The position numbers and the translations under genes were made by a program. Of a stretch of DNA of 64,000 nt, positions 3,540 to 28,746 are shown piece after piece. Location: sequence record PV419677.1. One strand, 5' to 3'. Numbering within the stretch: the stretch's first letter is position 1; each line of letters starts with the position of its first letter. The notes below the pieces were generated by a model that worked only from the letters and a program-made list of their open reading frames with translations, searched no databases and was not told where the DNA came from. Origin of the DNA: a phage.

Positions 3540-3848
3540 TTAACGGTCACACCACCAACTACTTACTTCAAAATCAGGTTCACCGTGTTCCCAGTACCAA
3601 GGACCGACTGGGTGCCAATCGCCATGTTCATCTTCTTCGTATTCTTCAGATTCGAGCCCAACGTATTGCCATTGGACTTCATAAGCAGTGCCACCGATTA
3701 CAACAGTGTTCTCGCCATATGGATGGGCTACAGCAAAGTCTATACCTTCTGCTTTGGCTAACCAAACCATATATTCGTATAGCTTATATTCCAGGTCATC
3801 TTCGGTGCCATCACCTAGAAAAATGGTTTGTTCGTTTAATTCAATCAT
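3540..3848 (-). CDS. hypothetical acidic protein
   Basis: ORF track, 102 aa, Trp/Glu-rich. Confidence 0.5.
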   Translation of the reverse strand: MIELNEQTIFLGDGTEDDLEYKLYEYMVWLAKAEGIDFAVAHPYGENTVVIGGTAYEVQWQYVGLESEEYEEDEHGDWHPVGPWYWEHGEPDFEVSSWWCDR

Positions 3849-4033
3849 AATTCCACCATAAATTCAAATAGCTGGTCACGTACACAAGTATCAGTCCAAC
3901 CCCATTTGTTGGCTTCTTCTTTTAACCAATCCGGGAGATTTGTCAATACGGTTTCTTTACTAGGCGCGGGAGTATCAAACTCTCTCGTCAACTCTCTTGC
4001 GCAGGTTTTATAGGCCATATCAAATTCAGTCAT
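3845..4033 (-). CDS. hypothetical protein
   Basis: ORF track, 62 aa, start overlaps downstream gene. Confidence 0.4.
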   Translation of the reverse strand: MTEFDMAYKTCARELTREFDTPAPSKETVLTNLPDWLKEEANKWGWTDTCVRDQLFEFMVEL

Positions 4034-5026: not shown

Positions 5027-6012
5027 TTCAGCAGCTCCAGAGCCTGTTCCAGTTTATCCAGACGATTAGTTGATTCTTCCCAAAATCGCTTGGCTTTGGT
5101 ATAGTCTTCAGTTGCCTTTTTATTAACAGCAAGAGCTTTATTATACGCTGTTTCCAGGGCAACAATTTCAGGCGCTTTTTGTTCCACTGACTCATTATTC
5201 AGATTATCAATCAGGTCTTCAAGGGTGGTTTCTTGCGGAGCGTTCATAATTTCCTCACTTTTCTTTTTATGGATTTCTGCAATAGTTGGTTGCTTTGCAC
5301 ATTTAACTTCACGCAATGTCACCACAATTTTCCAACCTTTCCAACCATGAGTACTGGTGATAGGGTCTACTTTAATTTTTTCAACAGTGCGCATATAATT
5401 AAGGGCACACTGCAGCTGATGAACAAGAACACATGCAACATCAAGATACTTTTTGACATTTTCTGGGGTAGCCACCGGCGTAAAGAATTCATACTTAACT
5501 GCAATAATTACCTGGTTTTCACCAGACTCTTTAACATTTATCATGTGCTCAGCCAAATGGGAGATAGTGCGAAAATCACCGCCCATCAATTTTGTCGCTG
5601 ATTTTATGATAGACATTTTGTTATCTCTGAATTCACGAGCCCAACAATTTGCGAATTCAGAAACAGTATAGCCTTGCTTATCAAGGTAGTATTTTTCAAC
5701 ATCACCAAACCAATGATATCCAATTGTACCTTTACCGCGTCTGGATTCAACGCCAAACTTATTAAGAAGGTCTTTATTAACCAGGTATGCCAGGACTCGG
5801 GAACCTTTAAAAGTTTTCTTGATATCATCATTACCGGCACGACTCGCAATAGTTGCAATGTCTTTCTTGAAGCGACCAGATGCAACAATCGTCGAGTCAA
5901 TCTGATTTAACCAGTAATTGATAATTAAAAGGATAGCCGATTCGCCTATCAATGGTTTTACTTTTGTGTCGATAGTTGCGTTAAAGGCCTGGATATATTC
6001 ATTACGTGTCAT
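5023..6012 (-). CDS. hypothetical protein with C-terminal coiled coil
   Basis: ORF track, 329 aa. Confidence 0.6.
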   Translation of the reverse strand: MTRNEYIQAFNATIDTKVKPLIGESAILLIINYWLNQIDSTIVASGRFKKDIATIASRAGNDDIKKTFKGSRVLAYLVNKDLLNKFGVESRRGKGTIGYHWFGDVEKYYLDKQGYTVSEFANCWAREFRDNKMSIIKSATKLMGGDFRTISHLAEHMINVKESGENQVIIAVKYEFFTPVATPENVKKYLDVACVLVHQLQCALNYMRTVEKIKVDPITSTHGWKGWKIVVTLREVKCAKQPTIAEIHKKKSEEIMNAPQETTLEDLIDNLNNESVEQKAPEIVALETAYNKALAVNKKATEDYTKAKRFWEESTNRLDKLEQALELLK

Positions 6013-17055: not shown

Positions 17056-17285
17056 TTCACTTCCTCGCCAGTTGCGATATCATATTCCACCAAACGAATG
17101 CCGTCAGTCCAACCTTGCACGGAGATATAAGTAGTTGGATAAATCATTTCTTTACCATTCCACTGACCGCCATTCCAGACTTCCAGAAAGTCTTGTTCAC
17201 CGGGTCCATTAAACCATTCAACAAATCTTTTCAGAGCTGCGTCAGAACCTTCAATAGTCAATTTAGACATATTTTTTCCAGTCAC
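17052..17285 (-). CDS. hypothetical protein
   Basis: ORF track, 77 aa. Confidence 0.5.
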
Positions 17286-17562
17286 TAATTAATCGCACAT
17301 CCTGGTCATAGGTCAGGAGGCTACGAGTTATAATACCCTTACACGGTCCAGAAATAAATTCCAGAGTAAAGTAAGGAACCAACTTCATCAAGCGAATACT
17401 CGGAGCAGTGCAACGAAATCTGGACCCAATAAAAGGTCCAGACAAAAACACATACTCAAAGAAATTAGCTTTATTAAAGATTTCATAATTCTTTACGAAA
17501 TCCTCAGACCGAACCTTTGGGCTAAAATAGATTTGGTCAAAAAGCTCTTCATGGGTCATCAT
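17263..17562 (-). CDS. hypothetical protein
   Basis: ORF track, 99 aa. Confidence 0.5.
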   Translation of the reverse strand: MMTHEELFDQIYFSPKVRSEDFVKNYEIFNKANFFEYVFLSGPFIGSRFRCTAPSIRLMKLVPYFTLEFISGPCKGIITRSLLTYDQDVRLISDWKKYV

Positions 17563-18101
17563 TGCATTCCTATCACAAAGAACAGAGGACGTGTGGTTTG
17601 ATTGGTTTCTTCACATGATGCACGACAACAATGTTGCACTACCTTTATATGAGCATCATAAATCTTATCCATATCAGGCGTTTTAACAGGCTCATCAATT
17701 ATATACAGAACCCGTGAAAGTGATAATCCACGGAATTTGCATGCAGTGTTACCAATAAAACTACGAACAGAATCAGTGTACAAACGGTACTTAATACTTT
17801 CTGTATGGTTATTAAAATATTCCTTTCGGATTGCAGTAGCCGAAACATTAGCATACGCGGCGCAATTAGACAAAATAATTACAGTCCCACCACCTGCGAG
17901 CCAATCAGACGCAAAAATGGATACTGCCCTTGTTTTACCAGATTGGCGTCCACCATCAAGTTTTAGGGTGCAGTATTCTTTAAACAGGGTTTGTGAATCG
18001 GGTACATAAAACCCACTATTACAAATGTGTTCTACTCTAGCATCAGAATGGTTTGCAAAAGCATTCATCAGGGATAGATAACTACCGGTTAAAAATTTCA
18101 T
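17559..18101 (-). CDS. small P-loop NTPase
   Basis: Walker A GGRQSGKT and Walker B-like LYIIDEP. Confidence 0.55.
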   Translation of the reverse strand: MKFLTGSYLSLMNAFANHSDARVEHICNSGFYVPDSQTLFKEYCTLKLDGGRQSGKTRAVSIFASDWLAGGGTVIILSNCAAYANVSATAIRKEYFNNHTESIKYRLYTDSVRSFIGNTACKFRGLSLSRVLYIIDEPVKTPDMDKIYDAHIKVVQHCCRASCEETNQTTRPLFFVIGMQ

Positions 18102-18244
18102 AGTTGTCTCTTAGTTGTGGGGCCGTTCCTTGGCGCATCATTCATCCCTTCCTGCATTTACCCATTACCGCACTCGGGCTCGACCTTATTACAGGTTGGC
18201 GGGAGTCCCTCAGGATTGAGGTCCAGGTTGCTCCCATTTAATTA
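18102..18244 (-). other. GC-rich structured non-coding spacer
   Basis: 143 nt with no ORF-track ORF on the minus strand; nested inverted repeats GGGAG..CTCCC and CCTCA..TGAGG; visibly GC-richer than flanks. Confidence 0.35.
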
Positions 18245-18508
18245 TTACGCTTTACCGCCAGAAACAATACCAAAGGTATCAAAATCCCATTCAATATTGT
18301 CAACATCAACTTTCTTACCAGCAACCACGAATGCGATTTCGCGGCGTTTTGCATAGGTAACAATTTCTTTACCATCGCCGCCAAAGAAAGAATAACCATT
18401 GCGCTTCATGGTGCCAAAGTCTTCAGCATCACCAGCGAAGGCGCGGACTTTAAAAGCACCGGTAGGAGCTTTAGCAGATTCAGTAATAAATTCTTGATAA
18501 GTTTTCAT
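18245..18508 (-). CDS. internal-protein-like (capsid-targeting N-terminus)
   Basis: from MKTYQEFITES: matches the T4 internal-protein N-terminal targeting sequence with an I-T-E cleavage motif. Confidence 0.6.
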   Translation of the reverse strand: MKTYQEFITESAKAPTGAFKVRAFAGDAEDFGTMKRNGYSFFGGDGKEIVTYAKRREIAFVVAGKKVDVDNIEWDFDTFGIVSGGKA

Positions 18509-18556: not shown

Positions 18557-18973
18557 TTAAGCGTACACAGCTTTCCCATAGTATTTGTACCAGGTAGGCT
18601 TTTGAGAAATTTTCTCATTCAGTCTGGCTTGACTGATTTCAATTGACCAGATTGATGGTTGATAATCATTTTTCCATTCATCAGGAATATCACTTAAATC
18701 TTGGGTAGAAATATCTTTTATGTTAAACCCTCGCTTTAAACATTCTGCAATAAGTTCTTGATGACGGTTTTTAAGGAACAAAAGTTTATCATAAAAGAAG
18801 GTAACATGACCAGTCCCTAAAAGAAAAGATGATGGAATTTTAAAGTCAGAAACCTTTTTACCATTTTGCACATGCTTACGAACAGCGCCAAAAACGCGAG
18901 GAAGTTCACGATATTCAGCCATAAGATGTTGGTCAGCAAGTTCAGATACCAGGGTTAAATTAATGCGAGTCAT
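18557..18973 (-). CDS. denV: endonuclease V (pyrimidine dimer glycosylase)
   Basis: 138 aa; [35 protein letters not shown] matches T4 DenV as recalled. Confidence 0.85.
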
Positions 18974-18999: not shown

Positions 19000-19029
19000 A
19001 TTATAACCCTATCATTTGGAGATGTACAC
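19000..19029 (-). promoter_or_regulatory. early promoter with -10 TATAAT inside a perfect inverted repeat
   Basis: gatagggt-tataat-gaccctatc on the minus strand with GTGTAC about 17 bp 5'. Confidence 0.45.
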
Positions 19030-19517
19030 TAATATGCGTCAAAAGTTCCGGTACGGAACGTTTCTATAACTCGTTTGGCTCGGTTCGGAGTCTGGACTTT
19101 ATACCATCTTGAGTCCGCCAGTTCCTTAGCAGCCGCTTCCCATGATTTAGCCTTCAGAAGTCGCATACCCTTAGGAAAACCAGCAACACCAGCAACACCC
19201 ATCTGGAATACCATATTAATGAGTGCACAACGACGAACTTCATCAAGTACATCATAAACAGGTTTTAAGACAGGGTGTCTCAAGATTCCGGCTTTAGCTT
19301 TTTCGACCGAACGATTAAACAATGTTTCAGCTTCGTGTTGGGTTATACGGCCATTACAGACACGACCCATGAGCTTGTCGAGCTCGGCGCGAGCGACATC
19401 TTTAGATGGGTTCTTAGTTATCAGTTGCCCGATACCAATGGTCCAATAGCCTTCAGTATCTTTATACAAATCCAACTTACAACCTTCATCTATGCGTAAC
19501 ATTTCGAATATATTCAT
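19029..19517 (-). CDS. e: lysozyme (endolysin)
   Basis: 162 aa; [37 protein letters not shown] matches T4 lysozyme. Confidence 0.95.
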
Positions 19518-19550
19518 AATACCCCCTTATATAGGGGTATTTATTATCCG
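19518..19550 (-). promoter_or_regulatory. hairpin covering the e ribosome-binding site
   Basis: ccccttatatagggg inverted repeat immediately 5' of the e ATG. Confidence 0.45.
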
Positions 19551-20002
19551 AAAATTTGAGTCATTACCTTGTACATCGATTTACCCATCACATACTGCCA
19601 TTGACTCGGTTTAATCAAAGCAAATGCATCGAACTCTGGAACCGAACTACCATCCGGAAAGGTATGATAGGCAGAGCATTTACTATGTCTGAACTGCTCA
19701 TGCTCGACCGGAACCGTGTACAAAAACAGGTGAAGGTTTTTATTATCTGAATAACGGAACTCACCCAGGTCCTTTAAGAATGCTGGGTCATATTGGGTAA
19801 ACCCAGTTTCTTCTTCGCATTCACGGATAGCAGCTTCAATCGGGGATTCACATGCTTCAACATGACCCTTAGGGATGTCCCATTTGTGCGCAGGCATACC
19901 TGGTTTACGAGAACCGGTAACACGACCCATGAACAACTCTTTATCTTCAGTCATGAAAATAATGCCAGCAGATAATTCTTTCACCTTGTTTTTCTTACTC
20001 AT
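19544..20002 (-). CDS. nudE: Nudix hydrolase
   Basis: Nudix box GHVEACESPIEAAIRECEEETG; ATG at 20002 chosen (152 aa). Confidence 0.8.
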   Translation of the reverse strand: MSKKNKVKELSAGIIFMTEDKELFMGRVTGSRKPGMPAHKWDIPKGHVEACESPIEAAIRECEEETGFTQYDPAFLKDLGEFRYSDNKNLHLFLYTVPVEHEQFRHSKCSAYHTFPDGSSVPEFDAFALIKPSQWQYVMGKSMYKVMTQIFG

Positions 20003-20231
20003 CGTCGCGCTTCCAAGATTTTTTAAAGATTTCGGCCATAATAGTTTCAACGCATGTTTCTGTTGATGGGCTTTCACTATCAGTTATTCGAACCATATAG
20101 TCGGAAATTGGTCGGAACATATCCAAGTCAGTTTCTAAATCATCTTTGATTTTCTCTTCTGATGTACCTGTATCATAGGAATACAGATAAGAATCACACG
20201 ACTCTGATTTAATATAAATTGCAATACTCAT
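19995..20231 (-). CDS. hypothetical acidic protein
   Basis: ORF track, 78 aa. Confidence 0.5.
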   Translation of the reverse strand: MSIAIYIKSESCDSYLYSYDTGTSEEKIKDDLETDLDMFRPISDYMVRITDSESPSTETCVETIMAEIFKKSWKRDDE

Positions 20232-28171: not shown

Positions 28172-28206
28172 GGGGTATAAAAAAGCCCCAACCTTTCGGA
28201 AGGGGC
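28172..28206 (-). terminator. intrinsic terminator 3' of the tRNA/stable-RNA cluster
   Basis: GCCCC..GGGGC hairpin followed by a six-U run on the minus strand. Confidence 0.55.
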
Positions 28207-28215
28207 TATGCCTTG

Positions 28216-28589
28216 CGGCAACCTTGTCGGGGTTCCACCTGCTAAGGCAAGTGTTTGTACGAAACGCCGGGATTTGAACCCGGTTATTAAGTAGTTGACG
28301 CTACTCAATATTTTTAAAAGGCCATATCTCGACCATATCCGAACGTTCCGTCAAAAACGCTGCTCGGCTTACGGCAAAGATATTCCCTCGAATCGATAAT
28401 TCTGTGCGCCGTTTCAGCTGTGATATAAGGGGACATCAACAAATCGTAAAGATTTATTAATGCCAGTCCTTAAACAGGGAACTTCAGTCCGACGACTTAC
28501 CGGTAGCGACCCGGTTTCTTGTTTGTTGCGCCGGTGAATGCTGATAATCAGTCTTCATACGACGGCTTGACTATATAATAGTCTTCATT
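28216..28589 (-). ncRNA. non-coding region 3' of tRNA-Arg, putative stable small RNAs
   Basis: ~375 nt with no ORF-track ORF; hairpins GACTAT-TA-ATAGTC and CTGAT-T-ATCAG; tRNA-like T-arm CCGGGTTCAAATCCCGG at 28266-28282. Confidence 0.4.
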
Positions 28590-28664
28590 TGGTATCCCGC
28601 CCTGGGATCGAACCAGGACCGCAAACTTAGAAGGATCGTATGCTATCCATTACACCAGCGGGAC
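28590..28664 (-). tRNA. tRNA-Arg (anticodon UCU)
   Basis: 75 nt hand-folded cloverleaf: acceptor GTCCCGC/GCGGGAT, T-arm CCTGG-TTCGATC-CCAGG, anticodon loop CTTCTAA, encoded CCA. Confidence 0.7.
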
Positions 28665-28669
28665 ATAGT

Positions 28670-28746
28670 TGGTGACCCAGACCAGATTTGAACTGGTAAC
28701 CTTTCCCTTATGAGGGGACTGCTGCTAACCATTGAGCTACAGGGCC
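28670..28746 (-). tRNA. tRNA with CAU anticodon (Met or Ile2-type)
   Basis: 77 nt: T-arm ACCAG-TTCAAAT-CTGGT, anticodon loop CTCATAA, encoded CCA; D-arm pairing imperfect in my hand fold. Confidence 0.6.

Follow-up and report, generated by a model that had tools for sequence, protein, structure and literature searches.

The window analysed here, a stretch of 64,000 nucleotides (nt) of phage DNA (PV419677.1), contains a spacer of 143 nt on the minus strand (18102–18244), located between an internal-protein-like gene and vs.8, which is very probably a conserved structured RNA module and one copy of an uncatalogued family of phage RNAs. The spacer is bounded by the TAA of the upstream gene (18245–18247) and by the vs.8 ATG at 18101, both on the minus strand according to the open reading frame (ORF) list and the sequence. 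The window is a T4-like phage; at this locus its sequence matches Shigella phage fPSFA with 100% identity and is related to that of many T4-like (Tevenvirinae) phages. Every gene of the ORF list at this locus lies on the minus strand: nudE (19544–20077), the lysozyme gene e (19029–19517), denV (18557–18973), the internal-protein-like gene (18245–18508, 87 aa, with a listed ORF reaching 18547 from an upstream TTG, hence 87–100 aa), vs.8 (17559–18101, from the ORF list and blastn) and vs.7 (17263–17562). The downstream neighbour, vs.8, encodes a 180-aa P-loop protein whose Pfam matches to Terminase_6N and AAA_30 are sub-threshold only and whose homologues are confined to T4-like phages; its ATG is preceded by a weak Shine-Dalgarno region (AAGAGA; 18099–18118 with the start). 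At the other end, the stop codon of the upstream gene is followed by an A/U-rich run, TAATTAAAT (18236–18247 with the stop). As noted in the initial annotation, the spacer is richer in G+C than its surroundings, with a fraction of 0.517 (51.7%) compared to 0.399 (39.9%) for the whole window and 0.39 for each flanking gene, a level reached by 0.96% of all 143-nt windows.

The spacer retrieved 934 phage records by blastn, including 551 at a query coverage of at least 80%, and T4 is among them, with its match, whose core lies at ~64,835–64,925, sitting between denV and the conserved vs.8 start; in Vequintavirinae the matches cover ~45–60 nt at ~90% identity. IMG/VR and metagenomes were scanned with exact patterns of the core (18161–18199), and the many hits that were chance matches in coding sequence were removed by means of their flanks. 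Among the T4-like phages, variant A comprises T4 and the window, variant B comprises JS98, VR7, Klebsiella Jiaodavirus and Moonvirus, and variant C is found in 165–177-kb phages, often as two tandem copies. The core is also present in two types of Vequintavirinae, in the N4-like Klebsiella phage Pylas and related 46-kb contigs, in the Pseudomonas syringae phages KIL1-5 (genus Flaumdravirus) and in at least five uncultured lineages (loci L036, L037, L054, L157 and L170). The KIL1 copy used as a blastn query gave nine Pseudomonas records, all those listed being KIL phages. A 16-mer scan of bacterial genomes (596 Gb, ~280 chance hits expected) gave 54 hits, all with unrelated flanks, and thus no evidence for a bacterial or prophage copy; likewise, blastn with the spacer in 5,426 Escherichia coli genomes at E≤1 gave no match, in a search that would miss seeds shorter than ~19 nt. 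Within the window, both the pattern and the covariance model R1 find a single copy.

In T4-like phages the whole element spans 18119–18235 (117 nt, 58% G+C; minus strand, as are all features below), as delimited by blastn and the T4-like alignments, and consists of a 5' hairpin (P1), a helix (P2) closing a nearly invariant loop, and a 3' extension specific to these phages. The nested inverted repeats reported in the initial annotation are present and form P1 (18201–18235), in which an outer stem, GGGAG (18231–18235) with CTCCC (18201–18205), encloses a 9-nt internal loop, CAACCTGGA, and an inner stem, CCTCA (18217–18221) with TGAGG (18208–18212), capped by the loop ATCC. Read from the alignments, the outer stem covaries among T4-like phages (GGGAG/CUCCC, GGGAA/UUCCC, AAAGG/CCUUU, AAAGC/GCUUU and AAAGA/UCUUU), and the inner stem shows a single compensatory change, C-G to U-A, in L146. 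In every other lineage a hairpin of unrelated sequence occupies this position and ends 0–8 nt before P2. The repeats are therefore a real structure, though they represent its variable part, while the defining core had gone unnoticed. The A/U-rich run adjoining P1 has a counterpart in variant B, UAAUAAAG, which belongs to the conserved module there.

P2 joins a 5' strand CCAACC (18194–18199; CCNACC in the family) to a 3' strand GGU-AA-U-G-GG (18161–18169; GGU-AA-N-G-NN in the family), with an AA bulge (18165–18166) and a G bulge (18163) that are both conserved. Pairs were counted on A2, a gap-free alignment of 49 distinct sequences from at least 10 phage lineages, in which allowing for the bulged G brings all lineages into register; they are N77-N115, N78-N114, N79-N112, A80-U109, C81-G108 and C82-G107, in addition to the two bulges. 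P2 is paired in 99.8% of the A2 cells, and GGTAA together with the bulged G is invariant in 49/49 sequences. The three variable pairs (21:59, 22:58 and 23:56) have each changed on both sides, giving the pair types CG/GC/AU, CG/UA/GC/AU/GU and AU/UA/UG/CG. Double-sided changes were counted in 42 cells, compared to 10.1 ± 2.3 in shuffles, with 0 of 500 shuffles reaching the observed value; the covariation score is 0.298 when compared to 0.061 in shuffles, and sliding the 3' partner by 1–3 columns reduces pairing to 12–55%. Independently of A2, RNAalifold on 29 T4-like sequences proposed the helix of CCNACC with GGUAANGG, in which the third pair is A:U in 14 sequences, U:A in 7, U:G in 5 and C:G in 3; this pair is G:C in L157, read by eye as the sequence is too short for A2. 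P2 has changed several times independently, for example inside variant B, from one Pylas sub-type to the other, in variant C and Vequintavirinae type 2, and in both KIL1 and L054. An earlier model of P2, in which CUGUA paired with a downstream UACAG, was replaced by the CCNACC/GGUAANGNN helix after RNAalifold and survives only as the tentative pseudoknot described below. On the opposite strand, the U:G and G:U wobbles of P2 would turn into A.C mismatches, and the folded molecule is therefore the gene-sense RNA; in agreement with this, the element always lies on the same strand as the flanking genes or tRNAs. The structured RNA suspected in the initial annotation thus stands because the structure is conserved with compensatory changes in many phage lineages, and the loss of structure among relatives that had been named as the adverse outcome did not occur, P2 covarying from lineage to lineage.

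The loop closed by P2 (18170–18193) is 24 nt long and nearly invariant, judging from the invariant columns of A2. It reads TGTAATAAGGTCGAGCC-CGAGT-GC in the window and UGUAAUAAGGUCGAGCC-N5-GC as a consensus across lineages, with variation limited to positions 4–6 (GU-RNN-A) and to the N5 stretch; the invariant segment of the core is AAGGUCGAGCC. The pattern AAGGTCGAGCCN5GCGGTAA has 1 match in the window, with 0 expected by chance. Within the loop, GCC (18177–18179) might pair with (T)GC (18170–18172) to form a tentative helix P3 that would stack on P2 and carry the variable CGAG of the N5 stretch as its apical loop. This GCC/GGC pairing finds support in one compensatory change, C:G to U:A, between the degenerate second copies of L043 and L040, and in the GCC-UUUU-GGC of L037. 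P3 excludes a GGU/GCC mini-hairpin (GGU-CGA-GCC) which never varies, so that the pairing of the latter cannot be judged by covariation; a local hairpin ACCU[GUAAUA]AGGU is also invariant. A tentative pseudoknot would join TGTA (18190–18193) to TGCA (18153–18156). For this UGUR/downstream YACA pairing, the variant C series offers A:U (L040, L055), G.U (L039, L043, L165) and G:C (L030), and A:U replaces G:C in L036; nonetheless, taken sequence by sequence the pseudoknot is not significant, such helices being no rarer there than in shuffled tails, and the helix is absent from the Pylas type, L016, L037, L054 and L170.

The genomic setting differs between the T4-like phages and the other lineages. 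The gene that follows the element in T4-like phages is always vs.8, except in L014, where it is an internal-protein-like gene; the element lies 15–40 nt upstream of the start codon, and its upstream neighbour varies (internal-protein genes, Ip4, IpII or denV); in L014 the N-terminus found 3' of the element is homologous to that of the internal-protein-like gene of the window. Copies outside the T4-like phages are in every case part of a tRNA gene island or adjacent to one, on the strand of the tRNAs, and no vs.8 homologue was found near them. In KIL1 the element is located between tRNA-Met and tRNA-Arg, under a spurious antisense ORF, and in L036 it comes after tRNA-Pro, with an intrinsic terminator next. 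The rV5-like phages have it in a gap of 350 nt that lies upstream of the tRNA cluster and has consensus promoters at its borders, and in the tRNA island of L042 it stands between two ~20-bp hairpins made by alternating inverted repeats.

Several observations were made around these copies. The tandem copies of variant C lie at 5079–5256 in L040, 9015–9193 in L043 and 357–535 in L165, and the copy proximal to vs.8 is degenerate in its loop (GGUCAGCC or GGCCAGUCC), with a shorter apical loop. In Escherichia phage JEP1 (L002, 2337–2686) and in L035 (450–830) the core sits inside a G+C-rich non-coding region of ~250–350 nt with sigma70 consensus promoters at its borders; this rV5-like region holds further conserved blocks, for example CUUGAUAGUGCACCACACU, and may be a larger, independent RNA gene. 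The Pylas-like tRNA islands (L042, 1932–2227; L031, 10516–10730) carry alternating 18-nt inverted repeats, A (ACAACAGGTAAGAGCATT) and B (AGTGCTCTTWYCGTTGTG), which fold into ~20-bp hairpins around inserts of 50–70 nt and look like processing or antitermination punctuation. Arm B includes UGCUCUUU, which we take to resemble the boxA antitermination sequence. Downstream of the element in phage Pylas, a stretch of ~100 nt (L031, 10980–11090) matches many unrelated phages at 76–93% identity, namely 156–163-kb Salmonella, Klebsiella and Enterobacter phages, 45-kb siphoviruses and HK633, and may be another widely shared small non-coding module. Finally, HNH endonuclease genes and group I introns, of which the KIL1 locus has three, occur in the tRNA islands at a distance of a few kb from the element (L046, 5067–7951; L036, 12784–13079).

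The 3' extension of the T4-like element appears to belong to the leader of vs.8. It extends over 18119–18152, reads GGAAGGGATGAATGATGC, and contains a hairpin, GCC (18132–18134)-AAGGAAC-GGC (18122–18124), followed by CCC. Its sequence is kept in all T4-like copies, and RNAalifold on the T4-like phages found no consensus fold besides the GCC…GGC hairpin. The distant vs.8 loci L175-L178 carry the element. In L174, whose vs.8 is 37% identical, no match to the core was found even with the covariance-model filters off, and both P1 and P2 are absent; denV leads directly into …AUGUGUCAAGGAUGACCCUAACUAAGAGACAUAUAUG, which corresponds to the 3' extension of the T4-like element, and the leader hairpin is GUC-AAGGAU-GAC, a compensatory change from GCC…GGC. 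The core is thus a separable module, since L174 retains vs.8 and the leader hairpin without it. On this comparison of sequences, the T4-like spacer is best described as a composite of a core module (P1 and P2, 18161–18235) and a vs.8 leader (18119–18152) that stays with vs.8. The extension also holds two GGA motifs separated by ~18 nt, and the hairpin loop contains one of these. The first motif reads AUACAUGGAUGA in some variant B phages, presumably close to the CsrA SELEX consensus, and a control of vs.8 by CsrA through these motifs would be possible.

In order to place the element among known classes, the locus was compared with Rfam 15 and with several types of RNA or DNA feature. The Rfam search suggested in the initial annotation yielded no family: only two tRNAs reach the gathering score in the window and the spacer gives none; at E≤10, the region 18050–18300 and the JEP1 copy return only noise (13–16 bits for gathering scores of 36–55), and six other element loci return only tRNAs and group I introns. 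Neither ARAGORN nor RF00005 calls a tRNA at 18102–18244 or over the element in 12 other loci. A scan for promoter-like and terminator-like sites found none in the spacer. The sequence after P1 is GCCAACC, without a T run, and the 'terminator' label in record MZ726795.1 was rejected as the sequence has no such run. Local similarity or complementarity to the E. coli rrn operon reached best scores of 18–19, when shuffled sequence averages 19.1; the only 8-mers in common include GCGGTAAT from the 530 loop of 16S, and an rRNA mimic or antisense was discarded since nothing exceeds the shuffled scores. No resemblance to CRISPR repeats or to type III antitoxins was seen in an informal comparison. A literature search for vs.8 found no match, and we found no paper containing the core sequence; a preprint on the UG27 non-coding RNA array concerns an unrelated system. 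The family is therefore absent from Rfam 15 and previously uncatalogued, while an earlier listing without characterisation is possible, as the 10,006-csRNA phage catalogue (PMC10690425) was not checked for it.

What the module does can be stated with less assurance. The explanation that we tentatively place first, although we rate it somewhat short of probable, is an autonomous module that binds a conserved trans factor. The covarying stems would give the invariant loop and the bulges a fixed shape, and the resulting surface would be recognised by a host or phage protein, possibly by a small ligand or another RNA, so that the module would function wherever it is transcribed. The module passes from one phage family to another as a unit and is found in very different transcript contexts. 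Covarying stems around an invariant loop and bulges are the pattern expected of a surface recognised by a partner. Hosts from Escherichia to Pseudomonas would all have to possess that partner, unless every one of these phages encodes it, and conserved cellular machinery is for this reason the most economical guess. In many phages a discrete small RNA is probably released from tRNA-type precursor transcripts, as suggested by the setting in tRNA islands, by the processing-type hairpins on either side, and by rnaC/rnaD and the PAK_P3 small RNAs as precedents. The copy in the window lacks a promoter and a terminator of its own and is therefore presumably transcribed within the mRNA that extends from the internal-protein-like gene into vs.8; embedded in this mRNA, it may act there without release, with the 3' extension and its GGA-loop hairpin being part of the vs.8 leader and outside the module.

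A bolder variant, in which the core is a horizontally mobile RNA tool acting in trans on machinery common to the Gammaproteobacteria, either as a decoy or inhibitor of a tRNA-directed factor or as a new aptamer for a metabolite or immune signal, is given a small chance only. The invariant loop starts with CUGUAAA, CUGUAAU or CUGUGAU, which we assume to match the anticodon loops of tRNA-Tyr and tRNA-His, and the element accompanies phage tRNA genes; speculatively, the loop could be the sign of a decoy for a tRNA-directed enzyme. In either form, this bolder variant would introduce a new functional class of phage RNA, found in T4 itself.

Several points weigh against a conserved module recognised in trans. 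The predicted fold is no more stable than that of shuffled sequence (minimum free energy z-score of +1.36 on the minus, sense strand and −0.26 on the plus strand), and P2 with its two bulges is weak alone. Of the folding and covariation analysis proposed in the initial annotation, the folding energy is unremarkable, a result that is uninformative and not a negative one, and the covariation across relatives is strong; it is conservation and covariation that set the region beyond chance, and thermodynamics alone would miss it. In addition, the loop interior never varies, which places its internal pairing beyond a covariation test and leaves P3 and the pseudoknot tentative. To our knowledge, species 1 and 2 were the only stable small RNAs named in the classic work on T4, so that the element in T4-like phages may never be a free abundant RNA. 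Its position at 15–40 nt from a start codon in these phages also fits a leader acting in cis, and the high identity of the core between phage families could result in part from recent horizontal transfer and not from constraint.

The main rival is a cis-acting, riboswitch-like leader, in which the core would be an aptamer for a metabolite, an ion or a protein and would control the translation or transcription of the next gene, vs.8, via the 3' extension and the weak Shine-Dalgarno region; we consider it unlikely. As in riboswitch aptamers and orphan motifs, which are modular, sometimes tandem and often found in 5' untranslated regions, short covarying helices frame invariant unpaired nucleotides, and tandem copies do occur. 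The element is always just 5' of the start codon in T4-like phages; in L036 an intrinsic terminator follows it after ~25 nt, ahead of a Shine-Dalgarno sequence and an ATG; a downstream AGGUUAG of the Pylas type can pair with the P2 5' strand CUAACCU to form an alternative helix; and in many T4-like phages the pyrimidine-rich 3' strand of P1 (UUUCC) is complementary to GGAA motifs of the leader or Shine-Dalgarno region. However, one ligand and one gene logic is difficult to reconcile with downstream features as unrelated and functionally incoherent as vs.8, an internal-protein-like gene, a promoter with a small basic ORF, tRNAs and a long hairpin. Many copies lie between RNA genes, as in KIL1 between two tRNA genes, and not in a 5' untranslated region before related genes; L174 has vs.8 and its leader without the core; the 3' extension yields no conserved expression platform in RNAalifold; and no Rfam riboswitch matches even at E≤10. 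The position of the element at boundaries between cistrons or RNA genes would also suit RNA punctuation in cis, be it the processing site envisaged in the initial annotation, here for RNase E, III or P, a 5' or 3' stabiliser uncoupling the decay of cistrons, or processive antitermination of tRNA-type transcripts. An A/U-rich single-stranded run adjoins P1 in all T4-like variants, and the L042 copy stands between two long processing-like hairpins with a boxA-like UGCUCUUU in their arms. Processing sites and stabilisers do not usually need a 24-nt loop that is invariant across phage families, though, and the covariance model finds one copy in the 64-kb window despite its many cistron boundaries; with neither a U-tract nor nut- or put-like features detected, we hold punctuation to be improbable.

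A function at the level of DNA appears very improbable. The element borders a hypervariable region, in which the upstream gene is an internal-protein gene, Ip4, IpII, denV or another while vs.8 stays downstream; homing endonuclease genes and group I introns are found nearby at some loci, and unrelated phages have the module in common, so that it might be a cassette-exchange junction of the internal-protein/denV region, a target for homing, or acquired DNA that persists as a drifting remnant with no role as RNA. Yet compensatory changes that include one-strand G.U pairs are unexpected for a DNA site. The PeSL, a short stem-loop directly upstream of a sigma70-type early promoter and present in many copies per genome in T4-like phages (PMC2839356, PMC4122927), is likewise a conserved non-coding module that borders variable gene cassettes of T4-like genomes, but the element differs from it by its size (~90–120 nt with a conserved core) and its occurrence outside the T4-like phages; a PeSL cassette was also rejected because 18102–18244 has no sigma70-like promoter and the element occurs as a single copy in the 64-kb window, in place of the promoter and the many dispersed copies that define PeSLs (PMC4122927). 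Of the acquired-DNA idea put forward in the initial annotation, horizontal sharing between unrelated phages holds, while that of a remnant does not: the module is maintained without decay, with an invariant core in lineages whose flanks cannot be aligned. Protein coding, finally, is close to untenable. The 31-codon frame pointed out in the initial annotation exists (18142–18237, minus strand, MGATWTSILRDSRQPVIRSSPSAVMGKCRKG); in most lineages one sense frame (…RQPVIRSSPSAVMGK…) crosses the core without a stop; and coding calls do cover the element, as in T4 RefSeq, where vs.8 has 219 aa with a start inside P1 and its first 40 codons over the element (NC_000866; L026, 64793–64912), in RB14, where the vs.8 start is annotated inside the element in a different frame (L001, 1617), in L177, where a denV-like call is over-extended through the element (2164–2487), and in KIL1, where an antisense hypothetical coding sequence covers it (L173, 889–1131). 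Comparison of the frame across lineages nevertheless shows that start, stop and frame are not conserved: no start lies upstream of the core in eight lineages (L003, L002, L016, L035, L125, L036, L054 and L170), the frame is interrupted by a stop in L031 (Pylas), and ORF ends vary from 16 to >90 codons. Substitutions are non-conservative (I/A/K/E/T at one codon; P/L/Q/R and S/R/C/L at the first and second N5 codons) and indels are not multiples of three. A frame link to vs.8 exists only in T4, via a 10-nt duplication, and RB14 has a stop, for which reasons the T4 link is regarded as an accident; the conserved N-terminus of vs.8 (M[KR]xFLTG…) begins at the downstream ATG in all homologues.

Among the known systems that are close to the element, rnaC and rnaD of T4 are also phage-encoded, structured non-tRNA RNAs of ~120–140 nt, travel with tRNA genes and have no known function. 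Element and rnaD have a loose theme in common, GGGUCG…CCGGUAAG. There is no homology, however: the covariance model R1 finds no match in L171, which has the T4 tRNA, rnaC and rnaD genes, and none is seen by eye; rnaC and rnaD end in tRNA-like acceptor/CCA features, whereas the element has a bulged P2 and an invariant loop; and the T4-like element is part of an mRNA, ~6–10 kb from the tRNA cluster. In E. coli, 3'ETS-leuZ is a spacer of a tRNA operon that is co-transcribed, processed free and acts in trans. The likeness to it is a functional analogy only, as no target complementarity of the element was identified. The sRNA1 and sRNA2 of PAK_P3, a virulent Pseudomonas myovirus, are abundant transcripts of ~100 nt from intergenic and tRNA regions with unknown function (PMC4933390); they demonstrate that such islands yield discrete small RNAs (PMC4933390), but their published sequences do not contain the core.

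T4 is among the best-studied of genomes, and the element is annotated there as the N-terminus of a hypothetical protein. If the proposed reading is correct, a new RNA family could be defined, which would come with a ready covariance model and would correct vs.8 starts and spurious ORFs in hundreds of records. The maintenance of a ~45-nt core in myoviruses, podoviruses and siphovirus-sized contigs of Escherichia, Klebsiella and Pseudomonas would point to a common cellular target, and the family would add to the non-tRNA content of phage tRNA islands (rnaC, rnaD and the PAK_P3 small RNAs), whose functions have been open since the 1970s.

Two further observations concern the neighbourhood of vs.8 and the small RNAs of the window. 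In L177 and L178, a gene of the Acb2/Tad1-hairpin family (3671–3949 in both) lies ~1 kb downstream of vs.8. We take it to be an anti-CBASS sponge similar to T4 vs.4, and its proximity to vs.8 would therefore make the vs cluster partly an anti-defence region. The window itself has clear homologues of rnaD and rnaC in the non-coding stretch 28195–28590 (minus strand), 3' of tRNA-Met (28670–28746) and tRNA-Arg (28590–28664), which neither Rfam nor ARAGORN reports and which are followed by an intrinsic terminator near 28200. Close to the element of L042 (~2400–2450), a sequence ending in …GGUUGAAGCGGCGCACCA resembles the 3' end of T4 rnaD (…GAAACGGCGCACCA), which suggests that rnaD-like RNAs, too, are common to unrelated phages.

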